42,119 bases of DNA, from contig CANRCA010000002.1 in assembly GCA_947628985.1 (NCBI GenBank), positions 1-42,119 of the forward strand, read 5' to 3'. Each line of letters begins with the position of its first letter. The stretch's first letter is position 1. This document shows positions 13,886 through 41,296 of the stretch, piece after piece. The notes under the pieces are model-generated. The model worked only from the letters and a program-made list of their open reading frames with translations, made no database searches and was not told the DNA's origin. The stretch comes from an uncultured Bacilli bacterium (GTDB lineage: Bacteria; Bacillota_I; Bacilli_A; RF39; UBA660). A program made the position numbers and the translations under genes.

Positions 13886-13900
13886 TAAAAGGAGAATGAT

Positions 13901-17240: not shown

Positions 17241-17258
17241 CAACATTATTTATATAAT

Positions 17259-17296
17259 AAATCCTTTCTATATTCCCATAGAAAGGATTTATCTTT
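17259..17296. terminator. Bidirectional terminator hairpin between convergent genes
   Basis: aatcctttcta-tattccca-tagaaaggatt gives an 11-bp stem. It is flanked by A/T runs and sits between the LCP stop (17240) and the 204-aa gene stop (17377). Confidence 0.6.
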
Positions 17297-17376
17297 ACAC
17301 AAAGTTTTTTACACTTTCAAAAAATGCACCGTATTTTCAAAATATTGTTCATTTTTAAAATATCAAAAAAGAGCGA

Positions 17377-17991
17377 CTACTCACCCTTCACTATATATAA
17401 GATTTCATTATCATTTATAATAGTTAATTTTATATTATTTTGATAACCCATATCTTTTTCATATTCATAACTTAATGTAACAATATAAGCATCATATTCT
17501 TTTTCATTATAAGTATATTTAGTATCAAGAATATTATCTACATTTACATTACTTACTTTTGGTAATTCTTGATTTCTTTTTCCATCAAGATTACTTTCTA
17601 CATTTTTATATAATGTTGCTCCCATATTTTCACTAAAATTTTCTTTAATATCTTTATGTAAAAATTCAAGACCACCTATATCAGTACTAGCAAGTTTATT
17701 ATCAAGAGTAAATACATCAATTACAAATAGTTTAGAGATTAATTTAGCATATTCTTCATAATTTATAGGTTTCTCATTTAAAACACTCTCTAACTCTTTA
17801 AAATTATCCTTATATAAAGTACTATCATTTTCACTTAAAGTATAACCATATAAATCTAATGACATTAACTTTTTATTCACAGAAGTATTTTTAATAAAAT
17901 CATTATATACTTTATAACCTAAAAATCCAAATAATAATATTCCAATAATAACAAAAACTATAATTATTTTTTTACTTTCCTTTTTTTTCAT
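17377..17991 (-). CDS. Membrane-anchored extracytoplasmic protein of unknown function, translationally coupled to the LtaS-like gene
   Basis: 204 aa with a single N-terminal TM (IIIVFVIIGILLFGFLGY) and an ATGA overlap with the upstream gene. I recognise no motif. Confidence 0.5.
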   Translation of the reverse strand: MKKKESKKIIIVFVIIGILLFGFLGYKVYNDFIKNTSVNKKLMSLDLYGYTLSENDSTLYKDNFKELESVLNEKPINYEEYAKLISKLFVIDVFTLDNKLASTDIGGLEFLHKDIKENFSENMGATLYKNVESNLDGKRNQELPKVSNVNVDNILDTKYTYNEKEYDAYIVTLSYEYEKDMGYQNNIKLTIINDNEILYIVKGE

Positions 17992-22518: not shown

Positions 22519-22881
22519 TTATTCAAATGTATCTAAATTAGAACTACAATTGAATGGATGATTTATACAAGGCATACAATCTTTATAACTATTATTACCT
22601 ATTAAATTCATAATTAATGAAACAATTACTGTTACAAAGAAAACTAATGCTGCAGCAATTGCTCTTTTAACTAATTTCTTTTGAGCTTCTTGTATTTTAT
22701 TATCATCTTTTTCACCAACTGCTTTTGCAAAATCTAACATTCCTACAAATATTAATATTATTGGTACTACAATCATAATTCCTAATCTAACAATACCAAC
22801 TATTCTAAGAATTGGTTCTAATCCATTACATAGATCAGCCATATTATTAATTTGTTCTAATAGATTAACTAAATTTAACAT
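22519..22881 (-). CDS. Small two-TM membrane protein with a Cys-rich C-terminal tail (unknown function)
   Basis: 120 aa with two hydrophobic helices (IVGIVRLGIMIVVPIILIFVGML and AIAAALVFFVTVIVSLIMNLI). These flank a charged loop (EKDDNKIQEAQKKLVKR). The tail reads YKDCMPCINHPFNCSS. It is the last gene before the operon terminator. Confidence 0.5.
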   Translation of the reverse strand: MLNLVNLLEQINNMADLCNGLEPILRIVGIVRLGIMIVVPIILIFVGMLDFAKAVGEKDDNKIQEAQKKLVKRAIAAALVFFVTVIVSLIMNLIGNNSYKDCMPCINHPFNCSSNLDTFE

Positions 22882-24882: not shown

Positions 24883-25689
24883 TTACATACTGCCAAATAT
24901 TTGTAAAATAGATAGTAATAAAATAACAAGTACACCTGCTCCGGTTGCTACTAACATTGACATTGTTTTCTTTTCCATCTTTTCTAGTCTTTCTTTATAT
25001 TTTGTATCTCTTGATTTAGCTTGTAGATTTGATATTGTTCTTGAAAAAACTATTAATTGTTCTTGTTTTCTTTCTTGACTACCTAAACTAAGTCTATATA
25101 AAAGTCTCATCATACGCATAGAATCTCTAACTGGATATCTACGAGCAAATGCCATATATGGTTCAATTGTTGAATCTCCTGCATCAATAGCTGCTATTAA
25201 CTCACGAAGTCCTGGTTTAAACATTTCAGGAGCATCATCTAAACTTCTAGTAATGGCAACTGGTACTGTATAGTGTTGAATTAAAATTTCTAAACTTTTT
25301 AAATAATATGGTAACTTTAAATTAATATCATGTAAGTGAACTTTATAATAGTTCTTAAGTTTATTATAATCATCTTTAAAGATTAAATACGTAAGAGCTA
25401 AAACTAAAACTAATTTTATTGCAATATTTATATTTTCTATACTAGTAATTACTATAATCATACCTACAATAAATGTAATAATTGCACTTTTTACTCTTTT
25501 TTGATACTTTTCATTTGGAGTAATTCTATCTCCATATTTACTTATAACAAGAAAATCATAATCATCTTCTTTTAATTTTCCAAAAATTACTTTATTATCA
25601 TCAACAAACTTATTAAAACTAAATATTCCATTATAATTAAATAAGAATATTAAGATAACACCAACAATTAAAATTTCTAATCCATCCAT
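24883..25689 (-). CDS. tadC: Tad platform protein, TadC-like (single T2SS-F domain)
   Basis: 268 aa with TM segments flanking a helical cytoplasmic domain (LPYYLKSLEILIQHYTVPVAITRSLDDAPEMFKPGLRELIAAIDAGDSTIEPYMAFARRYP) and a C-terminal TM. TAATG coupling to the tadB-like gene. Confidence 0.7.
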   Translation of the reverse strand: MDGLEILIVGVILIFLFNYNGIFSFNKFVDDNKVIFGKLKEDDYDFLVISKYGDRITPNEKYQKRVKSAIITFIVGMIIVITSIENINIAIKLVLVLALTYLIFKDDYNKLKNYYKVHLHDINLKLPYYLKSLEILIQHYTVPVAITRSLDDAPEMFKPGLRELIAAIDAGDSTIEPYMAFARRYPVRDSMRMMRLLYRLSLGSQERKQEQLIVFSRTISNLQAKSRDTKYKERLEKMEKKTMSMLVATGAGVLVILLLSILQIFGSM

Positions 25690-26588
25690 TATTCAGCCCC
25701 CACATCCTCATGATAATATTTAATACCTGTTATTAAGAAATAAGTATTTATAAGTATTACAAAATGTAACAGCACTTGAACATACCAAGCATCTAATAAT
25801 TGTAAATAACTATCATTTCCTAATAACAATTGAACTAATAATACTAATAAATATAAAGCACATCCAAATGTAAGAAATTGTTTATAAAAATTAGTTCTAT
25901 CAATTCTATCACGATATACACTTTCTACTAACATATCTATATCTTGAAGCATTCCTTCTAAAGCTTCACCTGAATCTTTAGATCCTTCTTTAGTAATTTG
26001 AATAAATAATTGATGCATATTTTTAACTACATAATAGTCATATTTTTCATTCATAAATGTTATAGCTTCATCAATAGTACCATTATCATATGACATTTGA
26101 ATCATTTCTTTTATATCACTAAGTAATGGATCTTCTAAAACTCCTGAATCTCTAACACCTTCTAAAGCTTTAACAAAAGATTGAGTTGTATTATATTCCA
26201 TAATAACGTTTGTAGTGTAAACTTGTATTTGTTCAAATATAAATTCACTATATGCTTTTTTACATCTCATATATGCTAAATATGGTATAAAAGCAATTGC
26301 TAACGCTGCATAAACTATACTCCAAATAATACTATAAAAATATAAATAAGATACAAAAGCAGCTACAATTCCAAATATAATAACTTGAATTAAATATTGT
26401 CTTGGAGTATATTCTTGACCTAATTCTTTTGCTTTTTCACGTACTACTTTAAATGAATATGGAGCATATTTTTCATAAGTATTTCCTATTGTTTTAACAA
26501 TAAATTTATAAGAGTTATTACCTGTATTTCTTCTATAAATATATACAAATATAAATATAGCTACTACAACAAATATCTCAATATACAT
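25689..26588 (-). CDS. tadB: Tad platform protein, TadB-like (single T2SS-F domain)
   Basis: 299 aa with an N-terminal TM, two central TMs, a helical domain (LEGVRDSGVLEDPLLSDIKEMIQMSYDNGTIDEAITFM) and C-terminal TMs. RBS taggaggtg. A split platform (two single-domain proteins) is the Tad/archaeal arrangement. Confidence 0.7.
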   Translation of the reverse strand: MYIEIFVVVAIFIFVYIYRRNTGNNSYKFIVKTIGNTYEKYAPYSFKVVREKAKELGQEYTPRQYLIQVIIFGIVAAFVSYLYFYSIIWSIVYAALAIAFIPYLAYMRCKKAYSEFIFEQIQVYTTNVIMEYNTTQSFVKALEGVRDSGVLEDPLLSDIKEMIQMSYDNGTIDEAITFMNEKYDYYVVKNMHQLFIQITKEGSKDSGEALEGMLQDIDMLVESVYRDRIDRTNFYKQFLTFGCALYLLVLLVQLLLGNDSYLQLLDAWYVQVLLHFVILINTYFLITGIKYYHEDVGAE

Positions 26589-26599
26589 TTTTACACCTC

Positions 26600-27865
26600 C
26601 TATACATCTAATAATTCAAATCCATTTTGACTTTCAGAATTATTATTTATATTTTGATTTACATTATTATCTACTTTAATTAAACTTGGATTATTTTCTT
26701 GACTTACAGTATTTTCTATAACTTGATTTGTTACTTGATTTTGTACTGGTACTTCTTCTTTATGTTCTTCATTATTCTCACTAGTTGATTCTTGTATAGT
26801 ACTATCTATTGGTATAAATGGATCTTCTCTCATCATAACACCTTGACTAGCTAAATAATCAATTAAATGACTAGTTGGGTTATTATAAGTTTCATTTCCT
26901 GTTAAATCACGTGAATATAAAATATTTACTTTTGCTTCATTTGCTTCATCATCAACATAAAATTCTACAACTTGAGTAATTTCTCTTTGAAATCTATTAT
27001 ATTGTTTAGAATAAAATCCTTTTACATGAATTCCAATTTGTATATATCTATGCATACTTTTAACAAATTGATCTATATCTTGACTAGACTCAAGTAGTGA
27101 ATAAAGACGCATAGGAATACTTGATGCTTTATCAGAGTGAATTGTTGATAAAATGTTATGTCCAGATGAAATAGAGTTTCTAACTGCTGTAACGGCTTCA
27201 GCAGAACGAACTTCTGATAGTAAAATCCATCTTGGGTTTTGACGCATACAAGCAACAAGTACATCTGAATATGATGCAATATTATTTGTTTTCATCGCAA
27301 CTATATCTCTTGTTGGATATATTTTATCTAAGTGAAGTTCTAAAGTATCTTCTATTGTTATAATTTTTTCATCCTCTTTTATTTTACTTGCTAAATATTT
27401 TACTAATTCAGTTTTACCACTACCAGTTTCTCCACTTACAAGTATATTGCAGTGCCCTTGAACACAAGTTATTAAAAAGTCATGTAATTTTACTGAAACA
27501 TAATCTTCACTTACTAATTTTTCTTTATTTAATCTTATTTTAGCTGGTGTTTTTCTTATTAAAACAGCTATTCCATTTGTAGCAATTGATTCATGCACAA
27601 AATTAAGACGTAATTCTGCACTTTCAGCATCTAATAATGGATGAGCCATATTAAATGTTTTACCCATTACATTAGAACATTGAAATGCAAGTTTTTCCAT
27701 AACATCATTATTTAATCCTTCAATGTGTTCTGGATATACGCCTTTTGATAAAGATTTTACCCATAATTGTCCACCATTAGAATATGAAATATCTGTAATA
27801 TCATCATTTTCTAATAATGGCATAAGTAAGCCAAAATCTATTTGTGAAAAAACAATTGTGTCCAT
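26600..27865 (-). CDS. tadA: TadA/CpaF-family secretion ATPase (VirB11-like clade) with an N/Q-rich C-terminal tail
   Basis: Walker A VSGETGSGKTE, Asp box ITIEDTLEL, Walker B/arginine region RQNPRWILLSEVRSAEA, His box HNILSTIHS. It lacks the tetracysteine motif of PilB-type ATPases. The last 70 aa or so are low-complexity N/Q/E. Confidence 0.85.
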   Translation of the reverse strand: MDTIVFSQIDFGLLMPLLENDDITDISYSNGGQLWVKSLSKGVYPEHIEGLNNDVMEKLAFQCSNVMGKTFNMAHPLLDAESAELRLNFVHESIATNGIAVLIRKTPAKIRLNKEKLVSEDYVSVKLHDFLITCVQGHCNILVSGETGSGKTELVKYLASKIKEDEKIITIEDTLELHLDKIYPTRDIVAMKTNNIASYSDVLVACMRQNPRWILLSEVRSAEAVTAVRNSISSGHNILSTIHSDKASSIPMRLYSLLESSQDIDQFVKSMHRYIQIGIHVKGFYSKQYNRFQREITQVVEFYVDDEANEAKVNILYSRDLTGNETYNNPTSHLIDYLASQGVMMREDPFIPIDSTIQESTSENNEEHKEEVPVQNQVTNQVIENTVSQENNPSLIKVDNNVNQNINNNSESQNGFELLDV

Positions 27866-27877
27866 TTTTATTCCTTT

Positions 27878-28636
27878 CTAATCAACCAAATCTGGTTCAA
27901 TTTGTTCAGTTTTACTTTCTATTAATCCTCTTAAATATTCACTTTTAATATTAGTTTCTTTATCGTAATTAGCATTTCTTGGAACTGGTATTAATTCACC
28001 ACCGCTTAAATTCATAGCTTTTCTAAGTAATAAATGATAATCTTCAGAAACTGAGAATATTAATGCTGTTGCATTTTTTTGATCTGCACTTTTCTTAAAT
28101 ATATGATTTCCTGATTCATCTTTAACTGCTAGTATTTCAATACCTTCAATTAATTTACCAAGTGCTAATTTTCCATCTTCATAAGTTTTATAATATAAAT
28201 CAATTTTATCTCCAGGATATATTGCATTTCCATATGTAGATGAGGCACTTACTGGTAATGAAACTATTGTATTATTATTAACTATATTAGACCATGCTGA
28301 ATCTGGCATAACACTCCAATCAACTACAGCTGATGAATAAAACATACTTCCTTCAGGAATAAAAGTATTATAATTCACATATTTTCCTAATAATGAATTT
28401 GGATTTGTTATAACATTATCAGTTATCATAGATGAAGCTACTTTAACTGTTTTATAACAATCTTCTGTAATTTCTGTTCTAGCATCAAGATTTTTAGTTG
28501 CTATTGGAATACTTATTGCATTTATTGCTCTATTAACTCTATAGTTATATCCAACTATTAATATTACTACACAAATTATACTAGCAAGTAATGTAACAAT
28601 ACTTTTATTATGAAAAAACTTACTTATTATTTTCAT
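27878..28636 (-). CDS. cpaB: CpaB/RcpC-like protein (SAF-like domain plus beta domain), copy 2
   Basis: N-terminal TM, then IPIATKNLDARTEITEDCYKTVKV and NTIVSLPVSASSTYGNAIYPGDKIDLYY, which match the CpaB pattern (SAF-like segment, then ...PGD.VD...). Paralogous to the adjacent 294-aa protein. Confidence 0.65.
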   Translation of the reverse strand: MKIISKFFHNKSIVTLLASIICVVILIVGYNYRVNRAINAISIPIATKNLDARTEITEDCYKTVKVASSMITDNVITNPNSLLGKYVNYNTFIPEGSMFYSSAVVDWSVMPDSAWSNIVNNNTIVSLPVSASSTYGNAIYPGDKIDLYYKTYEDGKLALGKLIEGIEILAVKDESGNHIFKKSADQKNATALIFSVSEDYHLLLRKAMNLSGGELIPVPRNANYDKETNIKSEYLRGLIESKTEQIEPDLVD

Positions 28637-29517
28637 TGTATACCTCCATCATTAACACCTGAATTATTATCTTGATTTTCAGTATCATTATTTTCTACAT
28701 TATTGTCATTGTTTCCTACAACAGGAACATTTCCTCCAATTGTTCTATCTTGACTTTCAACATCAATTGCATTATCTAAAATATATCTTTGAATAACAGA
28801 ACTTACTACTCTTGTTTCTTTAGGATTTTTAGAATATTCTGCATTTCTTGGAACCGGGAATATTGTACCATTTGCATAAGATGCTTTTCTTAAAAGTAAA
28901 TGCATATCTTCAGGAACACTAAATACTAAATATGTAGGTGATTTTGGAGCACCAATAGTTTCAAAAACATTATCACCTTCACTATCAGTTACAGAAAGAA
29001 CTTTAATACTTTCTATAAATTTACCTAACATTAATTTTCCATTTTCTAATGTAGTAGAAAAATATAAATCTATATAATTTCCAGGGAAAATAGAATTTCC
29101 ATAAGTACTATCTAAAGTTACAGGTAAAGCTACTAAAGTATTTCCATCTGGTATATTTTCATATAAACTTGATGGTAAATCTTCCCAAGATACTACCATA
29201 CTTGAATAAAATAATCCATTATTTGGTATAACTGCTGTATTACTAACATATTTTCCAATTATATCATTAGTATTTGTAAGAACATTTTTATTAACTACAC
29301 CACCTGGTACTTTTCTAGTTGATACCATTTCTGCAGTAATTAATGTTCTTGGTTCTAAATCTTGAGTTGCATATGGGACGTTAACTGGTTCTGTTTCCTT
29401 TTGTATTTTATAATTATATGCCCAATATAAAATACCCAATGCCAATAATATTGCTAAAATTGTAACAGTATTTTTATTTTTTAAAAATCTTTTAATTCCT
29501 ATTATAATAGTATTCAT
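28633..29517 (-). CDS. cpaB: CpaB/RcpC-like protein, copy 1, with an N/D-rich C-terminal tail
   Basis: N-terminal TM, VPYATQDLEPRTLITAEMVSTRKVP and NTLVALPVTLDSTYGNSIFPGNYIDLYF. It has a 4-nt overlap with copy 2. The tail reads GNNDNNVENNDTENQDNNSGVNDGG. Confidence 0.65.
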   Translation of the reverse strand: MNTIIIGIKRFLKNKNTVTILAILLALGILYWAYNYKIQKETEPVNVPYATQDLEPRTLITAEMVSTRKVPGGVVNKNVLTNTNDIIGKYVSNTAVIPNNGLFYSSMVVSWEDLPSSLYENIPDGNTLVALPVTLDSTYGNSIFPGNYIDLYFSTTLENGKLMLGKFIESIKVLSVTDSEGDNVFETIGAPKSPTYLVFSVPEDMHLLLRKASYANGTIFPVPRNAEYSKNPKETRVVSSVIQRYILDNAIDVESQDRTIGGNVPVVGNNDNNVENNDTENQDNNSGVNDGGIQ

Positions 29518-30124: not shown

Positions 30125-33100
30125 CTATTTATTACTTGTATATTCTGATATTCCATCACCTTTAATAACATTTACACCATAAGAACCATTTCTTAAATCA
30201 GTTAAAAATTTACTTGTACAATTTAAGAATTTATTATCTACAACATCACATGAATCTTTTTCTATTGTATCATTCATATAACTTCCACTATTTTTAACAC
30301 TTTGATTATAATCTTTTATTTTTCTAATACTAGATGGTGTTAATTCAAAACTATATTCTAAATACTTTTCTGTGCCTATTAAATCATTAGCAGTATTTTG
30401 TATTTGATTAGTTGCATTTACTCCATTAGATGTTGTCCAGTTAGTTTGTAAATCTTTCCTTGATTCTTTATCAGGGAATAAATTATTTAAATCAACATTT
30501 CTATAAATTGTATTTGTTTTTATTGATGATAAAGAATTAGATGCAGATGTACTATCTGGTAAAACAGTAACACTTGGTTCTTTTACATCAACACTACATG
30601 TAAACTTAGTAAAGTTTTGACTTTTTAATTCATTTGTAAATCCATCAGATGCTCTTTTTCTATAATATGTTGATACATCTGACAAAGTTTGAGTAACATC
30701 ACATCTACTTAATCCATTATCTAATTTTTTACATTCATTATATGCTTGTTTTGATAATGGATAAGAATATTTATCTAAATTAATTACATCTGTTTTACTA
30801 GTATTTTTAGATTTATCAATTATTTTACCACTATATGCTTCAACTTGGAATTCACTATTATTATAAAATCCTACTTGAGTACTTACTTCAAATAATGCAT
30901 AATCATTAGCAGGAACATCTATATTTGTAAATCTTTCTTTGTTATTTAAAATATTTGTACTATTAAATTCGTTATATGAATAATTTTCTTTAGTTGCATT
31001 ATATTCTAAACAAATTCCTTTACAATAAGATACATCTGATAATTTACTTGATGAAATTTTTTGCATATCTATGTCAGATGATCCACTTCCTATAGTATAA
31101 GGTTTATTCTGACTTGATACTTTATTTATAACTTCAGCTCCTCCATTATATGTAACTGAATTTTTCCATTCTGTATTTATTCCATAATTATTACTTTCTC
31201 CATATATTGATTTTATATAATTATTTATATTGCCAGTTGTATTCTCAACAGGTTTCCATACACTACTAGGTATATCAGATTCTTTAGCAAAATTACAATT
31301 ATATAAATCATATATTAATTGATTTAAATTTTCACGTCTTGATCCTTCACTTTGTGATTTAGCATACAATACAGCAAATAAATCTTTCCAATTTGTTATA
31401 GTTTTATCATCACCTGGTAATATACTTAAATCTCTATTTGTTATACCATATATTCTCTCCCAATCAATTGAATCTGGGAAAGGTTTATCAAAATATATTT
31501 CAGATACACACTTTCTCTTCATACTAATACCACTTGATAATTTCTTTGTTTCTGTATTAAATGCTTCGAAAGGTTTTATATCATATGTGAATTCTCTACC
31601 TGAAACTGCTTTTATATTATCTGCTAAACTATATTCAACTTCATCACTACAATATACTCTACAGAAATTTCTATTTACTTTAAAGTAATCACTATAATCA
31701 TAATAATTTTTATATTCAATAGAATCCATATTTACTATACAACTTAATGATGGATCTTTTATATATCCTGTATATACACTATTTTCTTTGTTTTGACATA
31801 CTGGTCTTGATGATCTAACACTATAATCACTACAGTTTCCTTGACAATTAAATGTTATATCATATGATACTTCATCAAATCCACTTTCTGTTGTTGTAGT
31901 TCCACTATTATTTATTTCTTCTTTCTTATAAAATGCAAACATAGTTTGTGCATTATCTGGGTTAGGACAAGCTACGTATTTTCTAACACTATATCCTGAA
32001 GTAGATTTTTTATATTCTATTTCTATTTTATATTTTTTATATGTAGTACTACTGTTTTTATCACAAACAGCAAAATATTCTGATTCTATTATTAATTCAC
32101 CTTTACTAGCATCATATATTTTATCAGAATCATTTATATCTATTTCATATTTTTGTCCATTTATATCAACTGCATATAAATGTTTTACTTCAACAGTACA
32201 ATATTGAGATATATAATTTCTATTATCACTATTTAATTCTGGATAATTAAGCCCAGTTGTTTTACCTTGTTCAATTAATGCAGCATCTTCTTGTATTTTT
32301 TTACAACTATATTGTACTCTTTCTGTATTAGTTATTTTTCTATCAAATGTTAATACTACTTTAGATTCTTCCTCTCCTCCAATTGGTTTTTCTGTCTCTA
32401 CTCTAGCAGAATTTGGTCTTGTATCAACTTCATTACCAAATAAAGAATCTAAATGTTCTTTCATATATTTATTTCCAAATACAGTATTAAAGAATAATGC
32501 AGCTGCTTGTTTCATTGTAGTTCTATTACCACACATACCATCTGGAAATTCACTACAAGATAAAGAGTCAAATTTATCAAAAAAATAATTATCAGGTTTT
32601 GTAGGATCTATATAATCAAATTTTTGTTTTGCTATATTATCCATATATATTCGCCATAATCTTGAATATCCTGATGCATATACATTACCAGAAGCTACAA
32701 ATGCAACTTGTTTTGAACAATTATTACCCATTGCCTGTGATACACCAGGCTTTGAATTGTCATACCCTGCTCCACCTGAGTGTGCACCCCATAGCCTCAT
32801 AGCAAGATCTATTACTTTATCACTAAAGTGATAATAGTTTCCTTCAATCATTATATTTGCATAACCACAATCAATAGTACTATAACTACTACTACAATTA
32901 TTTACATCAAAATCTGCAACTTGATAATTATTAGTTGTATTACTGTCAAAATTTTGATTAGGATTTATACAATAAGCTGGTGAATTATTTACTTGAAATG
33001 ATGGTGTACACGCTTCAAAAGTCTTTGTTTCTGGTATACATTGATATACAGGACAAGTTAAATGATATCGTGGCATACCACAAGATGTACACTCAATACT

Positions 33101-34012
33101 ATCAGCGCCTATTTCATCTTTATATTTTTTACATATATCAAGCATTTTACTTTGATTTGCTGATTCACCTTCAAATCCATAATCACCACCAGTAATCCAA
33201 CTATCGTCTGCTTCTGTAGTAAAAACTTTACTTTTTTCATTATATACACATATACCTGTCGCTCTATTATAAGTATAACCCGCATCACATGATATACATC
33301 CAAATGATACGTGTCCATTAGTAGATAATGGACCTGCTTGAGTACCAGAAGGACATTGAATACATTGACTACCGGTAGGAACTTCAGTATATCCAGAAGG
33401 ACATGCAATTCTTTTACAAGTAGTGTTTTGTGTAGTACATTTTTGATAAGTACATAATTTACCTCTATAAACTCCACCAACTTCAGCACACATATTTGCA
33501 TCATGCATGATCTCTCTAATAACTTCACAATTTGGTTTAGTATTCCATGCTACACAACTCATACTAGCATATTTAACATTTTGGCTTGTTAATTTAGGTG
33601 TTTTTGTAGCAGTAAAATAACAAGTGGTTGTTGCTGTTACTTTTCTTCCCTCATCATTACATCTTTGATAATATTGAACAGATGATACTGTTCCTTTTCC
33701 TGATAATGTTGACTTATTACTAACTCTTACAAGCCAATCACTAAAAGACATTTTAGCATCAAGATAGTTATAACCATCATAAACATTATTAAAAATTTCA
33801 TTCCCATTTTCATCTATTGCTCTTTTAAAATTTTCACAAACAGATGCTTTCATATCAAAACCTGCATTACTAGACTGTGTTGTATAACCTATATGTACAT
33901 TACATTTATTTGTCGTTCCAGCATTTATAAAAGAACACATAAAAGAGAACACCAATATTGTTGATATTTTTATTAAATTATTTTTCTTATTTTTTAATAC
34001 ATTAGTCTTCAT
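30125..34012 (-). CDS. Giant secreted cysteine-rich protein, copy B (about 1295 aa), unknown family
   Basis: Sec-type signal (MKTNVLKNKKNNLIKISTILVFSFMCSFINAG). About four dozen Cys by manual count. No C-terminal TM or LPXTG. Collinear paralog of 37691..41296, with a 21-aa identical run (TYDIKPFEAFNTETKKLSSGI) and other near-identical blocks (CRVYCSDEV-[ED]-Y, ENLN-[QE]-LIYDLYNCNF, RNVDLNNLFP, KGDGIS-[ED]-Y). The start is ambiguous (34030 or 34012) and neither has a good RBS. Confidence 0.75.
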   Translation of the reverse strand: MKTNVLKNKKNNLIKISTILVFSFMCSFINAGTTNKCNVHIGYTTQSSNAGFDMKASVCENFKRAIDENGNEIFNNVYDGYNYLDAKMSFSDWLVRVSNKSTLSGKGTVSSVQYYQRCNDEGRKVTATTTCYFTATKTPKLTSQNVKYASMSCVAWNTKPNCEVIREIMHDANMCAEVGGVYRGKLCTYQKCTTQNTTCKRIACPSGYTEVPTGSQCIQCPSGTQAGPLSTNGHVSFGCISCDAGYTYNRATGICVYNEKSKVFTTEADDSWITGGDYGFEGESANQSKMLDICKKYKDEIGADSIECTSCGMPRYHLTCPVYQCIPETKTFEACTPSFQVNNSPAYCINPNQNFDSNTTNNYQVADFDVNNCSSSYSTIDCGYANIMIEGNYYHFSDKVIDLAMRLWGAHSGGAGYDNSKPGVSQAMGNNCSKQVAFVASGNVYASGYSRLWRIYMDNIAKQKFDYIDPTKPDNYFFDKFDSLSCSEFPDGMCGNRTTMKQAAALFFNTVFGNKYMKEHLDSLFGNEVDTRPNSARVETEKPIGGEEESKVVLTFDRKITNTERVQYSCKKIQEDAALIEQGKTTGLNYPELNSDNRNYISQYCTVEVKHLYAVDINGQKYEIDINDSDKIYDASKGELIIESEYFAVCDKNSSTTYKKYKIEIEYKKSTSGYSVRKYVACPNPDNAQTMFAFYKKEEINNSGTTTTESGFDEVSYDITFNCQGNCSDYSVRSSRPVCQNKENSVYTGYIKDPSLSCIVNMDSIEYKNYYDYSDYFKVNRNFCRVYCSDEVEYSLADNIKAVSGREFTYDIKPFEAFNTETKKLSSGISMKRKCVSEIYFDKPFPDSIDWERIYGITNRDLSILPGDDKTITNWKDLFAVLYAKSQSEGSRRENLNQLIYDLYNCNFAKESDIPSSVWKPVENTTGNINNYIKSIYGESNNYGINTEWKNSVTYNGGAEVINKVSSQNKPYTIGSGSSDIDMQKISSSKLSDVSYCKGICLEYNATKENYSYNEFNSTNILNNKERFTNIDVPANDYALFEVSTQVGFYNNSEFQVEAYSGKIIDKSKNTSKTDVINLDKYSYPLSKQAYNECKKLDNGLSRCDVTQTLSDVSTYYRKRASDGFTNELKSQNFTKFTCSVDVKEPSVTVLPDSTSASNSLSSIKTNTIYRNVDLNNLFPDKESRKDLQTNWTTSNGVNATNQIQNTANDLIGTEKYLEYSFELTPSSIRKIKDYNQSVKNSGSYMNDTIEKDSCDVVDNKFLNCTSKFLTDLRNGSYGVNVIKGDGISEYTSNK

Positions 34013-34094
34013 AATATAAGTGTAACACATTTTTATTTATTTTTAAACAAAAAAATATAATGTTAAATCAAACATCATATTCTTCATTTAATAA

Positions 34095-34757
34095 TTAAAA
34101 TTTTTCTTTTTCTTTTTTAATTTTTCTAGATTTTATAATATAAACTATTGTTATTAAAACAAAAGGTGTAAACATATAAATTCCATAATTTATAATTGTT
34201 TTTAATATTCTATTAAAAGACCATTCTTGACTTTGTATTTGATTATCATATTCTTTTAATTCTTCTTTAAATTCTTCTTCTGTTATATTTTGTGTTTTAT
34301 CAGTATAAGTTTGACATAAATCATGTTCTGGGTATTTTTCACAGTATTCTGTTTTAGTAAAATAATTATAAGGTTCTACTGTATATTTTAATGTTTTTAA
34401 TAATTCATTTGGACAAGCACTATTATCATTTCCATATACTTCAAGTGTATAAGTTTCTTCTTTTAAATCTGTAAAACAACCTACCCCATAAATATTAAGA
34501 CTATCATAATTTTTGGCTTCTGCTTTATTTCCTTTACCATCTATTACTATTAATTTAATATCATCTCTAGGTGAAGAAATTGATAAAAAATAGGCATATA
34601 ATTCTTCGCCTTCTGTTATATCGCTTGATGTTCTTGAATCTTTTGTAAATTCTACTTGTACATTAGTAGCCCATTCACTTAAACTTTCATCATTACATAT
34701 TGCTTTTATATTAAACATAAATAACGATAAAAATAATATTAATATTAATTTTTTCAT
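34095..34757 (-). CDS. Small secreted Cys-containing protein with a C-terminal TM anchor (family member 2)
   Basis: Signal peptide, AICNDESLSEWATNVQVEF, GCFTDL, ACPNELLKTLKYTVEPYN, YCEKYPEHDLCQTYTD, an acidic linker, a C-terminal TM and a KSRKIKKEKEKF tail. Well over half of residues look identical to 41296..41961 by eye. Confidence 0.7.
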   Translation of the reverse strand: MKKLILILFLSLFMFNIKAICNDESLSEWATNVQVEFTKDSRTSSDITEGEELYAYFLSISSPRDDIKLIVIDGKGNKAEAKNYDSLNIYGVGCFTDLKEETYTLEVYGNDNSACPNELLKTLKYTVEPYNYFTKTEYCEKYPEHDLCQTYTDKTQNITEEEFKEELKEYDNQIQSQEWSFNRILKTIINYGIYMFTPFVLITIVYIIKSRKIKKEKEKF

Positions 34758-34775
34758 ATTCTCACCACCATATTC

Positions 34776-35417
34776 TTAAATACCATGTTGTAATTTAATT
34801 AGTTTATTTCTATAAAAAGGTATAAATATTAAACAAGTTATTAAAACTAATGCAATTTTAATACCATAATTAATTCCAAAATCATATAATTTATCAACTA
34901 ATGTTTTTTCTTTTTGTTGATTTTCTTGTTCATTTTCTTTATCTTGCACTATTATATTATCATAATTTTCTTTAGCTGTATTTAATAATTCTAAAGTAAC
35001 TTTACTTGATGTAAATTGAGATGAACACATTTTTATTTTATCTTCATATCCAGCACATTCAACACTATTATAATATGGATTAAAGTATTGTAAATTTATA
35101 AACATTGTTCTAAGTCTTATATCACATCCATCATTACCATATATATAAATAGCCATATATGTTCCTTCTTTTACATCATCAATTACAATTTCGCCATTTG
35201 AATTTCTATTATATTCTTTATCTTCAAACATAGCATATAATCCATCTACTACATTATATAAAGTAATTGTATATGTATTTTTCCCTTCATTAAATGAATA
35301 ATCACTTTGTATATTATTTGAATATTCTGAATATTCTTCATTTTTATCACGATTGCATTCTTCTGCATTAATAATAAATGGTAAAACTAATAATATAGAC
35401 ACTAATATTTTTTTCAT
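34776..35417 (-). CDS. Small secreted Cys-containing protein with a C-terminal TM anchor (divergent family member 3)
   Basis: Same layout as the other members: signal peptide, AEECNRDKNEEYSEYSNNIQSDYSF, GCDIRLRTMFINLQYFNPYYNSVECAGYEDKIKMCSSQF, an acidic/Q-rich linker and a C-terminal TM. ATGA overlap with the sortase gene. Confidence 0.65.
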   Translation of the reverse strand: MKKILVSILLVLPFIINAEECNRDKNEEYSEYSNNIQSDYSFNEGKNTYTITLYNVVDGLYAMFEDKEYNRNSNGEIVIDDVKEGTYMAIYIYGNDGCDIRLRTMFINLQYFNPYYNSVECAGYEDKIKMCSSQFTSSKVTLELLNTAKENYDNIIVQDKENEQENQQKEKTLVDKLYDFGINYGIKIALVLITCLIFIPFYRNKLIKLQHGI

Positions 35418-37045
35418 TCTTCCTCCTCTAATAATACTGCATGTACAACTAATCTTCTATTATTTCCTGTTGCACATGTAGATAGTGTTAATATTTTATC
35501 ATCTTCATCCACATCAACACCTAAATTAAACATACTTCTATTTTTAATTAATTTAATAAAATCTTTTTTTTCAGCTTGTGATTCAAAATTAATTTTTAAA
35601 TAATCTGTTGTATAATCTACTTTATATATTGAAAATATTTTAAATTTATAATTACCATTTTCTGTATCTAATGAAATAATCATATTTTCTTCATTACTTC
35701 TCCATGAAGAATTTAATACTTTTTTCAGTGTTCCAAACATAGTTCCATTTAACATACTATGCCCATAAATAATTGTATTATCATTTAATTCTTTATAATT
35801 ATTTCTATAATCTAAATATATCCATCCTATTGTATTTTTCTTTTTATATATATCATGTGTCAAATAATAATTATTATCACTATGTTGAAGTACTGGATAA
35901 TATATATTTGTATCTTTTACCATTAAATATCCTACTGTTTCATTATTAATTGATTTTAATACTCCAAGTGAATTATCAAATTTATATTTAGATACTATAT
36001 CTTCTTTAGGTTCTTCTGCATCTATATCTACATCTATATCATCTTCTGTTAATTCAAAGTTTCCTTCTATTATATCTTGTTCTGTTCTATTAGTATTTGA
36101 AGCATACGATTGATTAAATAAATCCATATTTAATTTATCTACACTTAATTTTTCAATATAATCATATGATTTAACTATTACTAAACAAACTATACATACA
36201 TATACAGATAATACACTTATTAATTTTAAGTTATTAAATGTTAATTGTTTAAATAAATTATTTTTTAAAAATGAATTAGCATAAATAATTCTAAATTCAC
36301 ATGTATAATCTTTTTTACATTGTTTACTTAATCCTTTAAGCCATTCAAAGTTATTAACAATAAAATTTCCCTTATCATATTCTTGATGTAAAAATACAAT
36401 TACATTTCTAGATTCATCATTTTTAACTAAATTAACTATAGACTTAATTAATTCTTTTGAATATACATATACATGTATAGCTTTTAAATTATAATTAATA
36501 TTTAAAAATTCTCTTAAATCATCTATTAATTCTGGATAATCTTCTTTTATTTTAATTACTTTTTTATAATATAATGTATCATTTTCAAAAGCATCTTGTT
36601 GTGTTGCAAACCTAAATGATATATTTTTTGGTAATGATGTAACAACATTTATATCTTTTAAATTAAATTTTTTTCTAACTCCTATTGGCATATAATAACA
36701 ATATATATTTTTAATTTCAGTATTTAAAAATAATTCATAATCTTGTAAACTTATAGTAGAAGAAAAATCTAAATATAAATCTGTTATTTCTAAAAATCTA
36801 ATTAATGAAAGAACATATTTAAAATTAATTAATCTAAGTATTCTTAAAGTATCAATATTTTCATTTTCTTTTATTAATTTACCTATTATTTCAGTTAAAT
36901 GTCTTTTATAGTATTTAAATGTATAAAAAAGAGAATTTTTGTAAAATTTATTTTTATTAACAAAAACTTTTTCATCATTTTTAACTTGTCTATAGTTAAA
37001 AACCAAAGAATTATTTATAATTGCTAATACTATATATTCTTTCAC
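35414..37045 (-). CDS. srtB: Class B sortase with a roughly 270-aa N-terminal cytoplasmic extension
   Basis: GTG start with a GGAG RBS. Central TM LISVLSVYVCIVCLVIV. The C-terminal domain carries SrtB blocks: VGYLMVKDTNIYYPVLQHSDNNYYLTHD, GWIYLDYRN, TIIYGHSMLNGTMFGTLKK (catalytic His), LTLSTCA (catalytic Cys) and RRLVVHAVL (Arg). Residues 1-270 match nothing I recognise. Confidence 0.8.
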   Translation of the reverse strand: MKEYIVLAIINNSLVFNYRQVKNDEKVFVNKNKFYKNSLFYTFKYYKRHLTEIIGKLIKENENIDTLRILRLINFKYVLSLIRFLEITDLYLDFSSTISLQDYELFLNTEIKNIYCYYMPIGVRKKFNLKDINVVTSLPKNISFRFATQQDAFENDTLYYKKVIKIKEDYPELIDDLREFLNINYNLKAIHVYVYSKELIKSIVNLVKNDESRNVIVFLHQEYDKGNFIVNNFEWLKGLSKQCKKDYTCEFRIIYANSFLKNNLFKQLTFNNLKLISVLSVYVCIVCLVIVKSYDYIEKLSVDKLNMDLFNQSYASNTNRTEQDIIEGNFELTEDDIDVDIDAEEPKEDIVSKYKFDNSLGVLKSINNETVGYLMVKDTNIYYPVLQHSDNNYYLTHDIYKKKNTIGWIYLDYRNNYKELNDNTIIYGHSMLNGTMFGTLKKVLNSSWRSNEENMIISLDTENGNYKFKIFSIYKVDYTTDYLKINFESQAEKKDFIKLIKNRSMFNLGVDVDEDDKILTLSTCATGNNRRLVVHAVLLEEEE

Positions 37046-37101
37046 ATTAATCTCCTATTATATATATAATAACATAAAAATCTTTTTAATAAAAGATAAT
37101 G

Positions 37102-37617
37102 CTATTCGATTTCATATTTTTCTATTAAATTATTAAATGCTTTATAATCAACCATTTTAAGTTCACTACTATAAGCTTCAACTGCTTCTCCATTTTTAAT
37201 ATAAATAAACATTGGAGCAGCAACTATTTGATCACTAATATTTGAAAATTTATTTTTTAAAATATCTAAATATGAATCTTTATATTCTGCTATATTCCAA
37301 TAAGTAATCTTATCCATTAAATTTTTATTTTTTATTTCTTTATATAATTTCTTTTCCATACTATGTACTTTAGATGAACCAGTATAACTTACTATTAATA
37401 TGGCTTCATTAGTTTCAGAAAAACTAAATTTTAAATCATCAGAAGATATTTGATTAATTTTATTATCATAAAAAATAGTATGATTTAATTCATTTACTTG
37501 ATAATTTAAATAAAATGCACGAATATATAAAGTAATTACAATAGTTAATATTGATACTAGTATTACTATAAAATAATTTTTATTAGATGTTTTTAAAATA
37601 TTTTTTAAGCTTTTCAT
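37102..37617 (-). CDS. Membrane-anchored thioredoxin-fold-like protein lacking cysteines (tentative)
   Basis: N-terminal TM. The pattern AILIVSYTGSSKVHSMEKKLYKEI ... APMFIYIKNGEAVE resembles the thioredoxin beta-alpha-beta plus cis-Pro beta-strand layout. However, GSSK occupies the CxxC position and the protein has no Cys. Confidence 0.3.
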   Translation of the reverse strand: MKSLKNILKTSNKNYFIVILVSILTIVITLYIRAFYLNYQVNELNHTIFYDNKINQISSDDLKFSFSETNEAILIVSYTGSSKVHSMEKKLYKEIKNKNLMDKITYWNIAEYKDSYLDILKNKFSNISDQIVAAPMFIYIKNGEAVEAYSSELKMVDYKAFNNLIEKYEIE

Positions 37618-37661
37618 ATTTTTTCTCCTAATTTAATATATCATATTTTTAAATTTATTTA

Positions 37662-37689
37662 AATAAAAATGTGGATTAATTACCACATC
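37662..37689 (-). terminator. Terminator after the 1201-aa gene
   Basis: The - strand reads atgtgg-taattaat-ccacat followed by ttttattt, starting 2 nt after the stop at 37691. Confidence 0.45.
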
Positions 37690-37690
37690 T

Positions 37691-40600
37691 TTATTTATTT
37701 TTATTATAATCTGAAATTCCATCACCTTTATTTACTACAATGCCATAATTTGTTGATCCTCCAGCTCTAATATTATTTAAGAATTCGCTTTGGCAATTAA
37801 AGTATTTTCCATCTTTAATTTCACAATTTCTTAATGAATTATCAGTATAATTTTTATTTTTATTATAATTTTTTATTGTTGTTATTGCTTCAGGTGTTAG
37901 TTCAAAACTATATTCTAAATATTCATCTGATGTAATAATAGAATTAGAAGATGCTTCTATTTCTTCTCTAGCTTGTTGTCCTTCTGGAGTAGACCAATTA
38001 TTTTCTCTATCTAATCCATTTGGAAATAAATTATTTAAATCAACATTTCTAAAAATTGTATTTCCATTTCCAGTATTATTTTCATATATTGTAACATTAG
38101 GTACTTTAACATTAATATAACAACTAAAACTATTTTTTTCTTTTAATTTTTGTACAAAACTATCTGATGTATTATTTCTATAATAAGTTCTTATAGTATT
38201 AGTATCATAGCTTTGAGTTACAGGACATTCACGAATACTATTATTAGATGTTTTATTGCAACTATTATATGCATTTTTAGATAGTGGATAAGTATAATCA
38301 TCTAATTTAATTAAATCACTACTATTTTCTAATGCTTTTCTTACTCTTCCTGTATATGATTCTGTTTCAAATTTACTATTATTATAAAATCCTATATTAC
38401 TAGTTACTTCAAAAGCAGCAAAATCATTTTTTGGTATTTCAGTATTTATAATATTTTTAAAGCTTGTTGAGAATGATTTACCACTAACACTAGCAACATC
38501 ATTTTTACCAATAGAATTATTATTGTCAAAACTACTTAAATTGTAATCTTCTTTAGTACTTGAATAATTTAAACAATCATTTACATCACCAGTACAATAT
38601 TTTATATTTAAATTTTCTACATCACTATTAATAGTTTTATCTACTTCTATATCAGATTTATTTGTTCCTACATAATTATTGTTATCAATATATTGAGCTC
38701 CACCTTTATATTCTATATTACTACTCCAAATATCATCATTTTTTGATGAAACTGCAAAACCATAATTATTATTTTCAGAATATAAATTTTGTATATTTTT
38801 AAATACATTTCCTACTTTATTATCTTTTGGTTTATTAATATTACTTGGCATATCTTTAATAAAGTTACAATTGTATAAATCATATATTAATTCATTTAAG
38901 TTTTCTGTTCTTTGTCCTTCTTTATAATTTTTTAAAGCAAGAACAGCAAATAATGATTTCCAATTATCTATTTCATCAAATGTACTATATCCAGCATTTT
39001 TTAAATCATTTTCTGTTATACCATATTTATCTTTCCAACTATTGTCTTTCTTAAATGAATTGTTATCATAGAATATTTGTGATACACATGTTCTTTTTAC
39101 TTTAATACCACTAGATAATTTTTTAGTTTCTGTATTAAATGCTTCAAATGGTTTTATATCATATGTAAATGTTTCACCAGATGCAGAATTTATTCTATCT
39201 GCTAAATAATAATCAACTTCATCACTACAATATACTCTACATAAATCAGTATTTACTCCAAAATATGAACTATAATCATAATAATTTTTTCTTTCATTTG
39301 AACCCATATTAGCAATACAACTAAGTGATGGATCTTTTACATATCCACTATAGTAACCATTTGTAGTAGCGTTGCTATTACATTTACCATATGATTCTCT
39401 TAAATTATAATTATCACATCCGCCACTACAAGTTACTTTTATTTCATAATCTTTTGGACTATTCCAACTTTGTTCTGTTTCATTATAGTCAGAACTATTA
39501 TCAGTATTTTTATTTGTTCCAAATGAGAATAATATTTGATTATCTTTATTTGAACATGATACATATTTATCAACTGTATTTTTAGTTCTAGATACTGGTG
39601 TTCTAATAATTACATGATATGTATTATATAATTCTTTAATTTCTTCATCACAAACTGCAAATGGAATTATTTCATGTTCTACTGTTCCTTTAGAACCATC
39701 AAAATATGCGTTTTCATCATTAATAATTCCATCACATTCTTCTGCTACTTTATTATCTTTATCAGGTCTACAATAAACATAATTTTTATTACCTTGACTA
39801 TCAACTGTATACCATTTATCAATTATTACATTACAATATTGTTTAATATATGCTTTTTCAGTATCCGTTAAATCTGTATATGTATCAATTTTATTACAAT
39901 TATATTTTAATTTCTTTTCAGTTACTATTTTATGTGGGAATGATAATTCTAATCTTGATTCTTCACCATCTGTTACTATTTCAACATCAGTTGGTTCAGC
40001 ATTTGTATCAATTCCTACTAATTCAGATAAATGTTCTTCCATTTTATCATTTCCAAAATAAGAACTAAAGAATAATGAGAAAGCATTTCTATAAGTTCCT
40101 TCTCCACATACTAAACCTAATGGAGCGCTTGAACATGTTATTTTATTAAAATATGTATTACTTTTACTTGCATCAATATAATTATTTTGTTCTGATTTTA
40201 TACTATTAAATAAGTAATTCATTATATAATCATGTGTGATTTTATATACATTAATTATACCATTTTTTGCATTATCAGATATATATGTTACTCTTCTATT
40301 ACAAACACCATTTTGAGATACTACATTTGCAACTCCAGTTCTAAGATCATAATAACCAGCTTGACCTGAATGGACTCCCCATAATCTTAACGCAAGTTGA
40401 GTATCTTGCTCTGAAATTGGGTAATTATTTTTTTGAGTTTGCCATGCTGATTCAATTAATATATTAGCAAAGCCACAATCTACAGTTCCTCTACTACTAG
40501 AACATTTTGAAACATCAAAATTTGTATCTACTCTATATCCTGCAGCACTATCAAAACCTTGATTTGGATTTACACAATATGCAGGGTCTCCATTAGCAGT

Positions 40601-41296
40601 TGTAAATGTTGGGGTACATACATTTAATTCTTCATCTTTAGGAGTACATTTATAAACAGGACATGTAAGCGTAAATTCTACACTACATGTACAATTACTA
40701 CTTCCTACTGCCTGATTACATGCATTTGTAAAATAATTTGTACTAGGTTCATCATTACCTGTAAATGTAAATTCATTATTCCAAGATTTTGTTGAAGAAC
40801 TTGAACTACTACATATACACATAGCTTCTCCATGAGGCCCTGTATTTCCATTTGGACGACAACCTGTTCCTCCAGAAGAACAAGGAACAACTCGTGAACT
40901 TGAACTAGTTACGGTATATGTACATGATGCTTTAGCAGTTATTTTAACATTTGGATCATCTTTATTACATCTTGTAAATGTTGTTTGTTCTGAACTTTTT
41001 GCATCTGCAGATTCCATTGAGCCAGATAACTGTTGATCTCTAATTGAAGTAATTCCATCAAAAGAATTTACACCACTTCCCCCAAATGTAGAAAAACCTA
41101 TCAATGTTGGATTATCATTATCACATATTTTTAATCTTGCATTCCAATCAGTTTGCCACTGACTTTGAGGATTTTCAGTTATTTTTTCACAAATAAGATC
41201 TTTTTCTGGATTACCATCTCCTATAGCAAAAATAATTGAAGAAAAAGCAAAAAATGAAAAAATTATAAATAGAAACTTTTTATTATTATTTTTCAT
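37691..41296 (-). CDS. Giant secreted cysteine-rich protein, copy A (1201 aa), unknown family
   Basis: Signal peptide MKNNNKKFLFIIFSFFAFSSIIFAIG. Cys-rich throughout. Collinear paralog of 30125..34012. The start is coupled (TAATG) to the preceding 221-aa gene. Confidence 0.8.
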   Translation of the reverse strand: MKNNNKKFLFIIFSFFAFSSIIFAIGDGNPEKDLICEKITENPQSQWQTDWNARLKICDNDNPTLIGFSTFGGSGVNSFDGITSIRDQQLSGSMESADAKSSEQTTFTRCNKDDPNVKITAKASCTYTVTSSSSRVVPCSSGGTGCRPNGNTGPHGEAMCICSSSSSSTKSWNNEFTFTGNDEPSTNYFTNACNQAVGSSNCTCSVEFTLTCPVYKCTPKDEELNVCTPTFTTANGDPAYCVNPNQGFDSAAGYRVDTNFDVSKCSSSRGTVDCGFANILIESAWQTQKNNYPISEQDTQLALRLWGVHSGQAGYYDLRTGVANVVSQNGVCNRRVTYISDNAKNGIINVYKITHDYIMNYLFNSIKSEQNNYIDASKSNTYFNKITCSSAPLGLVCGEGTYRNAFSLFFSSYFGNDKMEEHLSELVGIDTNAEPTDVEIVTDGEESRLELSFPHKIVTEKKLKYNCNKIDTYTDLTDTEKAYIKQYCNVIIDKWYTVDSQGNKNYVYCRPDKDNKVAEECDGIINDENAYFDGSKGTVEHEIIPFAVCDEEIKELYNTYHVIIRTPVSRTKNTVDKYVSCSNKDNQILFSFGTNKNTDNSSDYNETEQSWNSPKDYEIKVTCSGGCDNYNLRESYGKCNSNATTNGYYSGYVKDPSLSCIANMGSNERKNYYDYSSYFGVNTDLCRVYCSDEVDYYLADRINSASGETFTYDIKPFEAFNTETKKLSSGIKVKRTCVSQIFYDNNSFKKDNSWKDKYGITENDLKNAGYSTFDEIDNWKSLFAVLALKNYKEGQRTENLNELIYDLYNCNFIKDMPSNINKPKDNKVGNVFKNIQNLYSENNNYGFAVSSKNDDIWSSNIEYKGGAQYIDNNNYVGTNKSDIEVDKTINSDVENLNIKYCTGDVNDCLNYSSTKEDYNLSSFDNNNSIGKNDVASVSGKSFSTSFKNIINTEIPKNDFAAFEVTSNIGFYNNSKFETESYTGRVRKALENSSDLIKLDDYTYPLSKNAYNSCNKTSNNSIRECPVTQSYDTNTIRTYYRNNTSDSFVQKLKEKNSFSCYINVKVPNVTIYENNTGNGNTIFRNVDLNNLFPNGLDRENNWSTPEGQQAREEIEASSNSIITSDEYLEYSFELTPEAITTIKNYNKNKNYTDNSLRNCEIKDGKYFNCQSEFLNNIRAGGSTNYGIVVNKGDGISDYNKNK

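Follow-up and report, generated by a model that had tools for sequence, protein, structure and literature searches.

Cysteine-rich exported proteins of an uncultured Bacilli bacterium belong to a previously unannotated family and are encoded in a putative type IV filament locus

In type IVa pili, PilY1/PilC is a big Sec-exported adhesin that is not itself a pilin and is encoded within the pilus gene cluster. Operons combining DUF5411 and CpaF have been predicted in Roseburia, Ruminococcus and Eubacterium (PMC9523054, PMC6668835), and the Tad locus of Bulleidia follows another arrangement, in a paper that mentions neither sortase nor cysteine-rich proteins (PMC12786226). Here we analyze a 42,119-nucleotide stretch of DNA (contig CANRCA010000002.1, assembly GCA_947628985.1; hereafter, the window) from an uncultured Bacilli bacterium, which encodes two big cysteine-rich exported proteins, termed here A and B, within what appears to be a locus for a type IV filament, extended by a new accessory module that centers on an equally new protein family. 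An earlier, sequence-only reading of the window had singled out these proteins as secreted paralogues with an unusual cysteine load and had speculated on a catalytic role. We found that both belong to a family of large extracellular proteins that had not been annotated before and has no recognizable fold, and no description of this family or of its module was found in the literature searched.

Both minus-strand open reading frames (ORFs) of the sequence-only reading were confirmed (Table 1). The database gene call of A (P0001) begins six codons after the first ATG, and this second ATG, at 34012, is probably the true start, yielding a protein of 1295 amino acids (aa). BLASTP aligned A321-1301 with B207-1201 over 1050 columns at 41% identity (E = 0), in agreement with the proposed paralogy, and the N-terminal 200-320 residues of the two proteins were essentially unalignable: the pairwise alignment that had been suggested thus separates a conserved C-terminal part of ~1,000 aa from diverged N-termini. 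The conservation is indeed mosaic, and every block that had been listed was found (PAYC.NP, DCG.ANI..E, LA[LM]RLW, KDPSL.CI, YDYS, CRVYCSDEV, TYDIKPFEAFNTETKKLSSGI, ENLN.LIYDLYNCNF and RNVDLNNLFP), most of them remaining conserved throughout the family. Identical DNA runs shared by the two genes are real but do not exceed 29 nt, and residues identical between A and B use the same codon in 73% of cases, uniformly along the genes. Gene conversion was dropped on these grounds, the short runs being attributable to AT-rich codon bias.

Export of both proteins is directly supported by their signals. According to a Kyte-Doolittle scan, the sole hydrophobic segment in each is the N-terminal signal peptide, which is of the classical Sec, A-x-A type (in A, cleavage is predicted between FINA and G), and both C-termini are soluble (...KGDGIS[ED]Y..NK). 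A motif scan of all ORFs in the window found none that combines an LPXTG-like motif with a transmembrane segment and basic tail behind it, so that the description of A and B as Sec-exported proteins with neither a wall-sorting signal nor a membrane anchor holds in both scans. A prepilin (class III) N-terminal signal of the G|FTLxE type is likewise absent from A and B, the N_methyl motif occurring only in a 756-aa pilin of the same operon.

The family to which A and B belong is large. An exhaustive hidden Markov model (HMM) search with the conserved 1000-position profile, run against 1.84 billion representatives of clusters at 50% identity, recovered the representatives of 313 clusters at E <= 1e-3 (131 at the stricter E <= 1e-30), with lengths of 1000-1700 aa in nearly all cases; a word-indexed homologue search returned just 8 proteins, badly underestimating the family. 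Signal peptides are present in all members inspected, none of the members at NCBI is named, and the genome matches are all uncultured Bacilli, 'Tenericutes' or Erysipelotrichaceae metagenome-assembled genomes (MAGs) from rabbit gut and rumen. Neither A nor B matched Pfam (E <= 0.1) or NCBIfam, sixteen family members searched singly against Pfam at E <= 5 revealed no recurrent family, and eight distant members gave chance matches only, with Flg_new detected in a few N-terminal extensions. A sequence profile search of the PDB was empty at E <= 10. The conserved core had no tblastn matches in plasmid and phage collections, which indicates that the locus is not obviously mobile or conjugative.

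Structure prediction yielded a confident model without neighbors. With an alignment of 71 sequences, AlphaFold modeled B196-1201 at a mean pLDDT of 82.5 and a pTM of 0.78, with 412 residues at or above 90; the model is compact, switches between beta-rich and helical regions, and contains no stalk of repeats. Foldseek searches with this model found nothing in the PDB (best E 0.16, to antibody Ig domains) or in BFVD (best E 0.3). A shallower alignment of 9 sequences had given a poor AlphaFold model (pLDDT 56.8), whose Foldseek matches were meaningless. The profile, structure and Foldseek checks proposed in the sequence-only reading therefore assign the core to no known adhesin or enzyme family, and neither of the two outcomes that had been named there as speaking against the reading was encountered.

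The second defining property of the family is its cysteine content. A contains 49 Cys in its 1301-aa reading and 47 after cleavage, exactly the number that had been counted by hand, and B contains 41, all within its mature part. Cysteine makes up 3.8% of A and 3.4% of B, compared with 0.2-0.8% of the other exported proteins of the window and 0-2.4% of the other ORFs outside this locus. Exported proteins of Firmicutes are reportedly known for excluding cysteine, and the host is a wall-bearing Gram-positive, as had been supposed, because the window (~22% GC) encodes three TagF-like glycerophosphotransferases, a TagD-like cytidylyltransferase, GT4, LCP, LtaS and a sortase. The load of A and B is exceptional for such a low-GC organism.

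The parity of the cysteines points to disulfides. Of 20 proteins from related loci, 19 have an odd number of Cys once the signal peptide is removed (range 37-55, the one exception having 50; binomial p = 2e-5), and the same holds for 91 of the 107 full-length family members, as counted with a crude cleavage predictor (counts 29-81; binomial p = 3e-14). The sequences underlying these statistics are not phylogenetically independent; parity is nevertheless kept while the counts vary widely. In the 71-sequence alignment (B numbering), conserved cysteines are lost jointly as pairs, namely 388/397 (in four sequences), 690/737, 901/908 and 1158/1168, and the variable pairs 534/539 and c2678/855 co-vary with a phi of 0.8-0.9. 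One member (P0032), whose count is even, lacks C241, C639 and C1059 at the same time. Odd parity and paired loss together suggest many disulfides plus one conserved unpaired cysteine, which we propose to amount to ~18-28 disulfides and a single free thiol per protein; the co-loss patterns in this alignment do not by themselves single out which cysteine is unpaired. The oxidative folding that had been deduced from the Cys load alone is strengthened accordingly by a signature that is itself directly visible in the counts. Conserved Cys also occur in the candidate pilin and in accessory proteins encoded by this operon, and the whole apparatus therefore seems to be built for an oxidizing extracytoplasmic space.

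Residue conservation, counted in the same alignment, did not bear out the catalytic pair that had been speculated to consist of the Cys of PAYC and the His of RLWG-x-HSG. Within the PAYC motif, Y240 is present in 69/71, C241 in 70/71 and P244 in 68/71 sequences, and the two positions in between are taken by V, I or L (242) and, in 66/71, by N or Q (243). The proposed partner, His309, is retained in only 45/71, with Y, A, E or K standing in its place in the others, and the pair was dropped. Another histidine, His422, is found in 53/71. The invariant polar residues are R304, Q587 (71/71), W1101 and Y1150; no invariant His or Asp, and no conserved Cys/His/Asp constellation, exists in the 71 members. 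The remaining conserved positions are mostly Cys, Gly, Pro, aromatic residues and Asn, a profile that looks structural rather than enzymatic and would be expected more of a scaffold or binding protein than of an enzyme.

The most informative feature of A and B is their genomic context. From ~17.4 kb to the right end of the window, all genes lie on the minus strand, and A and B are embedded in a series that leads from small membrane proteins through a sortase fusion to components resembling a Tad machine (Table 1). Each big gene directly follows a small partner gene, and the stop codon of the 221-aa partner overlaps the ATG of B (TAATG), making it likely that the two are translationally coupled. 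All small proteins carry a [YW]-G-[IL]-[KYF] motif where the transmembrane segment starts, and the conserved tail of the third paralogue is predicted on the cytoplasmic side of its transmembrane segment.

Table 1. Features of the A/B locus in operon order (reading the minus strand), followed by features of A and of related loci (L numbers) and by one further gene of the window.
Feature	Coordinates	Strand	Remarks
Small partner, 221 aa	41296..41961	(-)	signal peptide, Cys-containing ectodomain, C-terminal transmembrane segment, basic tail
Big Cys-rich protein B	37691..41296	(-)	1201 aa; signal peptide cleaved after IIFA
PedC-like (PF20207, 71.5 bits) thioredoxin-fold protein, 171 aa	37102..37617	(-)	membrane-anchored
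Class B sortase fusion	35414..37045	(-)	Pfam Sortase 55.7 bits; TIGR03064 162.6 bits vs cut-off 153.75
Third small paralogue, 213 aa	34776..35417	(-)	always follows sortase; ends in conserved K[LV]KHGI
Small partner, 220 aa	34095..34757	(-)	paralogue of the 221-aa protein; directly upstream of A
Big Cys-rich protein A	30125..34030	(-)	1301 aa from first ATG
DUF5411 protein, 139 aa	29623..30042	(-)	N-terminal hydrophobic helix
Two CpaB/RcpC-like proteins	27878..29517	(-)	Pfam 24.9 and 22.9, below gathering score 28.8
CpaF/TadA-type secretion ATPase (T2SSE)	26600..27865	(-)	101.7 bits
Two polytopic membrane proteins, TadB/TadC position	24883..26588	(-)	no Pfam match; assigned by position and topology only
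Candidate Flp-like major pilin, 89 aa	24544..24813	(-)	MKEATGELNMTVVALVAVAAVGALF...; pilin-like N-terminal helix, 4 conserved Cys
Accessory genes of 163, 328 and 120 aa	22519..24459	(-)	conserved
120-aa protein (last of these)	22519..22881	(-)	two transmembrane segments, four C-terminal Cys; conserved in related loci
Modular type IV prepilin, 756 aa	20069..22339	(-)	N_methyl motif, GLUG-repeat C-terminal domain; distal operon end
One ephrin-receptor-like Cys repeat	A ~residues 209-262		in variable N-terminus; pairwise alignment
Small-big fusions	L012 8759..12979 and 13049..17854; L022, L023, L024, L026, L028, L033; P0045, P0052, P0065, P0069
DUF5411 protein with dockerin, rumen MAGs	L001 16709..17722
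Type IV prepilin, 1252 aa	L023 11231..14989		50 Cys; between two big genes
Upstream trio	L001 1413..4765; L017 2061..5330		beyond the window's right end
Dockerin type I protein, 746 aa	11645..13885	(+)	with SH3_3 and cadherin-like domains

This module recurs in ~25 of the 27 related loci with enough flanking sequence, even around members only 24-30% identical to B. It comprises the PedC-like protein, the class B sortase (SrtB) fusion, the 213-aa small paralogue, units of small and big genes (with or without DUF5411), two CpaB proteins, the T2SSE ATPase and two membrane proteins. The repeating unit is a small gene, a big gene and often a DUF5411 gene, a triplet that is duplicated in some genomes; in other loci the DUF5411 gene directly follows each big gene, and in some of them its product bears Flg_new repeats or a dockerin. 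Several lineages have the small and big proteins fused in frame into products of 1405-1755 aa, which keep the transmembrane segment of the small protein, a basic loop and a signal-peptide-like segment belonging to the big part. Such proteins look like Rosetta-stone-type fusions that arose at the overlap of the small and big genes. The fixed context of the big genes and the fusion to their small partners are thus both directly supported.

Big proteins evolve faster than everything around them. Between genomes, the TadA/B/C-like proteins are 76-92% identical (the ATPase alone 82-92%), DUF5411 proteins 57-80%, sortase fusions 56-67% and PedC-like proteins 43-56%, with small partners at 30-59% and big proteins at 27-59%. 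When distant genomes are compared, the two paralogues of one genome are closer to each other than to the protein of any other genome. The number of big genes ranges from 1 to 3 or more per genome, including orphan extra copies, which occur in a genome that also holds a full locus and which adjoin housekeeping genes, either HisRS/AspRS/GatAB or IleRS/NrdDG (L011 and L034; L016 and L035).

Several members of the locus depart from what their annotations would suggest. The PedC-like protein of the window has no Cys and no CxxC, ten orthologues have no Cys in the active-site region and S-Y-T-G-x-x-x-I in its place, and PedC-like proteins of family loci are usually entirely Cys-free. The locus accordingly does not encode its own oxidase; a role of this protein as disulfide oxidase was dropped for lack of CxxC, and it appears to be redox-dead. 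The sortase is preceded by a domain of ~270 aa without signal peptide or Pfam match, joined to it through one transmembrane segment (273-291). Neither the big nor the small proteins have a sorting motif, and both were dropped as candidate sortase substrates. The 89-aa ORF between the TadC-like and 163-aa genes is probably a Flp-type major pilin that is itself disulfide-bonded, and it is conserved in L017, where an ORF of 88 aa lies at the equivalent place. A weak match to T4SS_pilin (PF18895, E = 0.0035, below cut-off) was returned for the 120-aa protein. The 756-aa prepilin, which is followed in operon order by the LtaS gene, is not at the corresponding position in L017, and no prepilin peptidase was found in the window.

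Modular surface proteins occur in and around these loci. The 1252-aa prepilin of a sibling locus (Table 1) consists of Flg_new (Listeria-Bacteroides) repeats together with eukaryote-like Cys repeats of the Ephrin_rec_like and TNFR-like kinds, and part of the N-terminus of A aligns to its Ephrin_rec_like repeats (pairwise E = 0.002-0.003) with a matching Cys framework. Homology of the big core itself to the Cys-rich modular pilins of sibling loci was rejected, hmmsearch finding nothing significant. Dockerin type I modules are present in this Bacilli lineage, both in a 746-aa protein of the window and in a DUF5411 protein of rumen MAGs; no cohesin was detected in the window. In most loci, a conserved trio of genes lies upstream of the module, encoding a protein of ~862 aa without a Pfam match, a 54-aa ORF and a divergent 189-aa protein (weak HD), often preceded by a UvrD helicase. 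This trio may belong to the system.

We tentatively favor a reading, by analogy, of A and B as pilus-associated, disulfide-stabilized, surface-exposed adhesins with a PilY1-like role. Exported by Sec and folding outside the membrane, the big protein would meet its co-translated, membrane-anchored small partner and the DUF5411 protein from the neighboring gene, with the redox-dead PedC-like protein possibly acting as a chaperone, after which the neighboring Tad-like machine of the type IV filament would display the big protein on the surface of the cell. Of its two parts, the conserved C-terminal 1000 residues would form a structural or docking body (to the partner, to DUF5411 or to the filament), and the hypervariable, Cys-rich N-terminal 200-320 residues the binding head. 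That these are exposed surface proteins is suggested by the divergence gradient, in which the machine is conserved, the big and small proteins are diverged, and paralogue pairs are lineage-specific. The Flg_new and dockerin modules on DUF5411 proteins and the Flg_new/Ephrin_rec_like pilin of sibling loci make the neighbors of A and B look like components of surface display. We infer surface or pilus localization, adhesion, and the roles of the sortase fusion and PedC-like protein. Several observations weigh against such a picture: A and B carry an ordinary Sec signal instead of a prepilin signal, B itself lacks a DUF5411 gene, and orphan big genes have at least two distinct contexts beside housekeeping genes. 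The ATPase is clear, but several other machine genes were assigned to Tad with weak or absent HMM matches, and the sortase has no identifiable substrate in the window, where no ORF bears a sorting signal. Moreover, the compact model (pTM 0.78) is unlike the bead-on-a-string stalks of classical Gram-positive adhesins, and no known binding domain was found in the conserved core, where a small domain-level similarity could escape a Foldseek query of 1006 residues.

Three alternatives were weighed against this reading. Substrates of type II secretion systems (T2SS) are characteristically large, carry a Sec signal and fold outside the membrane, and A and B (~130 kDa) could be cargo, pushed as folded, disulfide-locked proteins through the thick wall into the medium by a Tad-like filament that works as a T2SS-like piston. 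They have no anchor, the fusions keep the signal-peptidase site of the big part, from which it could still be released, and a language-model study flagged operons with DUF5411 and CpaF in Clostridia as secretion-related (PMC9523054). However, the tight pairing with a membrane-anchored partner and DUF5411 suggests retention in a complex, some copies are orphans away from the machine, and rapid divergence with a variable head fits receptor binding at least as well. To our knowledge, moreover, no T2SS-like cargo system has been established in a monoderm, and we consider the cargo explanation unlikely. If A and B instead belonged to the machine, for example as a wall-spanning conduit or alignment complex replacing the secretin/RcpABC of diderm Tad, whose outer-membrane components are necessarily missing in a monoderm, one could account for their near-constant presence in the locus, the fixed gene order, the stoichiometric-looking small-big-DUF5411 units and the compact, confidently packed architecture that is predicted. 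Core machine parts normally behave in the opposite way to these proteins, which are the fastest-evolving of the locus (27-59% identity vs 82-92% for the ATPase), vary in copy number from 1 to 3 or more with orphan copies, and have a hypervariable N-terminus; a structural role in the machine thus seems distinctly improbable. The conserved core might also be an enzyme (for instance a peptidase, transglutaminase or amidase, with targets in the host, in prey or in the cell wall) with the unpaired Cys implied by parity as its nucleophile. The near-invariant Y-C-[VIL]-[NQ]-P would suit this, and the invariant Cys of DCG[YF]AN (model position 79) lies near the N-terminal end of a predicted helix (77-93), in a loosely papain-like manner. 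Yet that Cys most simply pairs with an invariant Cys nine residues upstream, His309 and His422 leave it with no conserved His or Asp partner (45/71 and 53/71), papain-like, NlpC/P60 and transglutaminase catalytic residues are not conserved, and neither an HMM match to these or to peptidases at E <= 5 nor a structural match was found, making an enzyme very improbable.

The unpaired cysteine invites one further, bolder proposal, in which Y-C-[VIL]-[NQ]-P would be a reactive centre, e.g., forming an internal thioester-like bond with Gln587: A and B would then represent a structurally new class of covalent adhesins, delivered by a Tad-like filament in monoderm gut bacteria, whose disulfide-locked body the redox-dead PedC-like protein and the unusual sortase fusion would help to mature. 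In thioester domains (TED) of Gram-positive adhesins, the bond-forming cysteine lies in a [YFL]C-hydrophobic-hydrophilic motif, and a helix carries the motif TQxxΦW (PMC6194298). The family echoes this arrangement with its Y-C-[VIL]-[NQ] strand, a following A-[LM]-R-[LM]-W helix, an invariant Gln, often in a hydrophobic-Q-polar-hydrophobic-hydrophobic context, and one unpaired Cys. However, the HMM and fold tests were negative: the TED HMM (PF08341) is not among the matches for A and B (E <= 0.1) or for 16 family members (E <= 5), and no TED entry, with its beta-barrel and three-helix bundle, is among the 50 PDB Foldseek matches listed. In the helix motif, 70/71 sequences have Ala at the site, four residues ahead of the Trp, that corresponds to the Gln of TQxxΦW, and the invariant Q587 is a separate Gln. 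We regard a thioester in these proteins as a long shot.

If pilus-associated adhesins are indeed what A and B are, the module could explain how uncultured Bacilli of the rumen and rabbit gut attach to hosts, fiber or other cells. The fixed coupling of the family to a Tad-like machine, a sortase that has a large, signal-less N-terminal domain, a thioredoxin fold without active site, and small membrane partners delimits a new accessory module of monoderm type IV filaments. In this gut lineage, which is anaerobic, wall-bearing and very low in GC, a whole surface apparatus seems to rest on disulfides (~20 or more in each protein), which also raises the question of the source of the extracytoplasmic oxidant in these organisms. 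The parity rule offers a test of the disulfide claim from sequence only, and at the same time indicates one reactive or structural free thiol. With 313 clusters, no annotation and a confident fold without neighbors, the family is a clean target for work on structure and function.

Among described systems, the thioester adhesins (TED/TIE; PMC6194298, PMC4450167) resemble A and B in being extracellular proteins of Gram-positives with a near-invariant Cys motif on a predicted strand, a nearby helix with an x-x-hydrophobic-W motif, an invariant Gln (Q587 of B) and, by parity, one unpaired Cys. They differ in that the Gln position of TQxxW is Ala in the A/B family, whose Cys and Gln are ~346 residues apart, and in that TIE proteins are Cys-poor and LPXTG-anchored, whereas A and B are Cys-rich and unanchored. 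The modular type IV pilins (the 756-aa GLUG protein and the 1252-aa Flg_new/Ephrin_rec_like protein of L023) share the loci and presumably surface display with A and B, and Cys-rich ephrin-receptor-like repeats are common to the L023 pilin and the N-terminus of A; in contrast to these pilins, A and B have no prepilin N-terminus, and their 1000-aa core is unrelated by hmmsearch.

The likeness to PilY1/PilC is one of function only, as no Pfam, NCBIfam or Foldseek match links A or B to the C-terminal beta-propeller of PilY1. PilY1 is a protein of the type IVa pili of diderms and is not rich in disulfides, and where it has the minor pilins PilVWX/FimU as partners, A and B have a small membrane-anchored protein and DUF5411. 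What they share is a length of ~1000-1200 aa, an ordinary Sec signal, a gene inside a pilus or minor-pilin cluster, a variable N-terminal region joined to a conserved C-terminal body and, often, several paralogues per genome. With monoderm Tad (type IVc) and the DUF5411/CpaF operons, the locus shares its CpaF-type ATPase, two polytopic membrane proteins, CpaB-like proteins, DUF5411 and a short Flp-like pilin candidate, to which it adds the big Cys-rich proteins with their small partners, the SrtB fusion and a PedC-like protein without CxxC.

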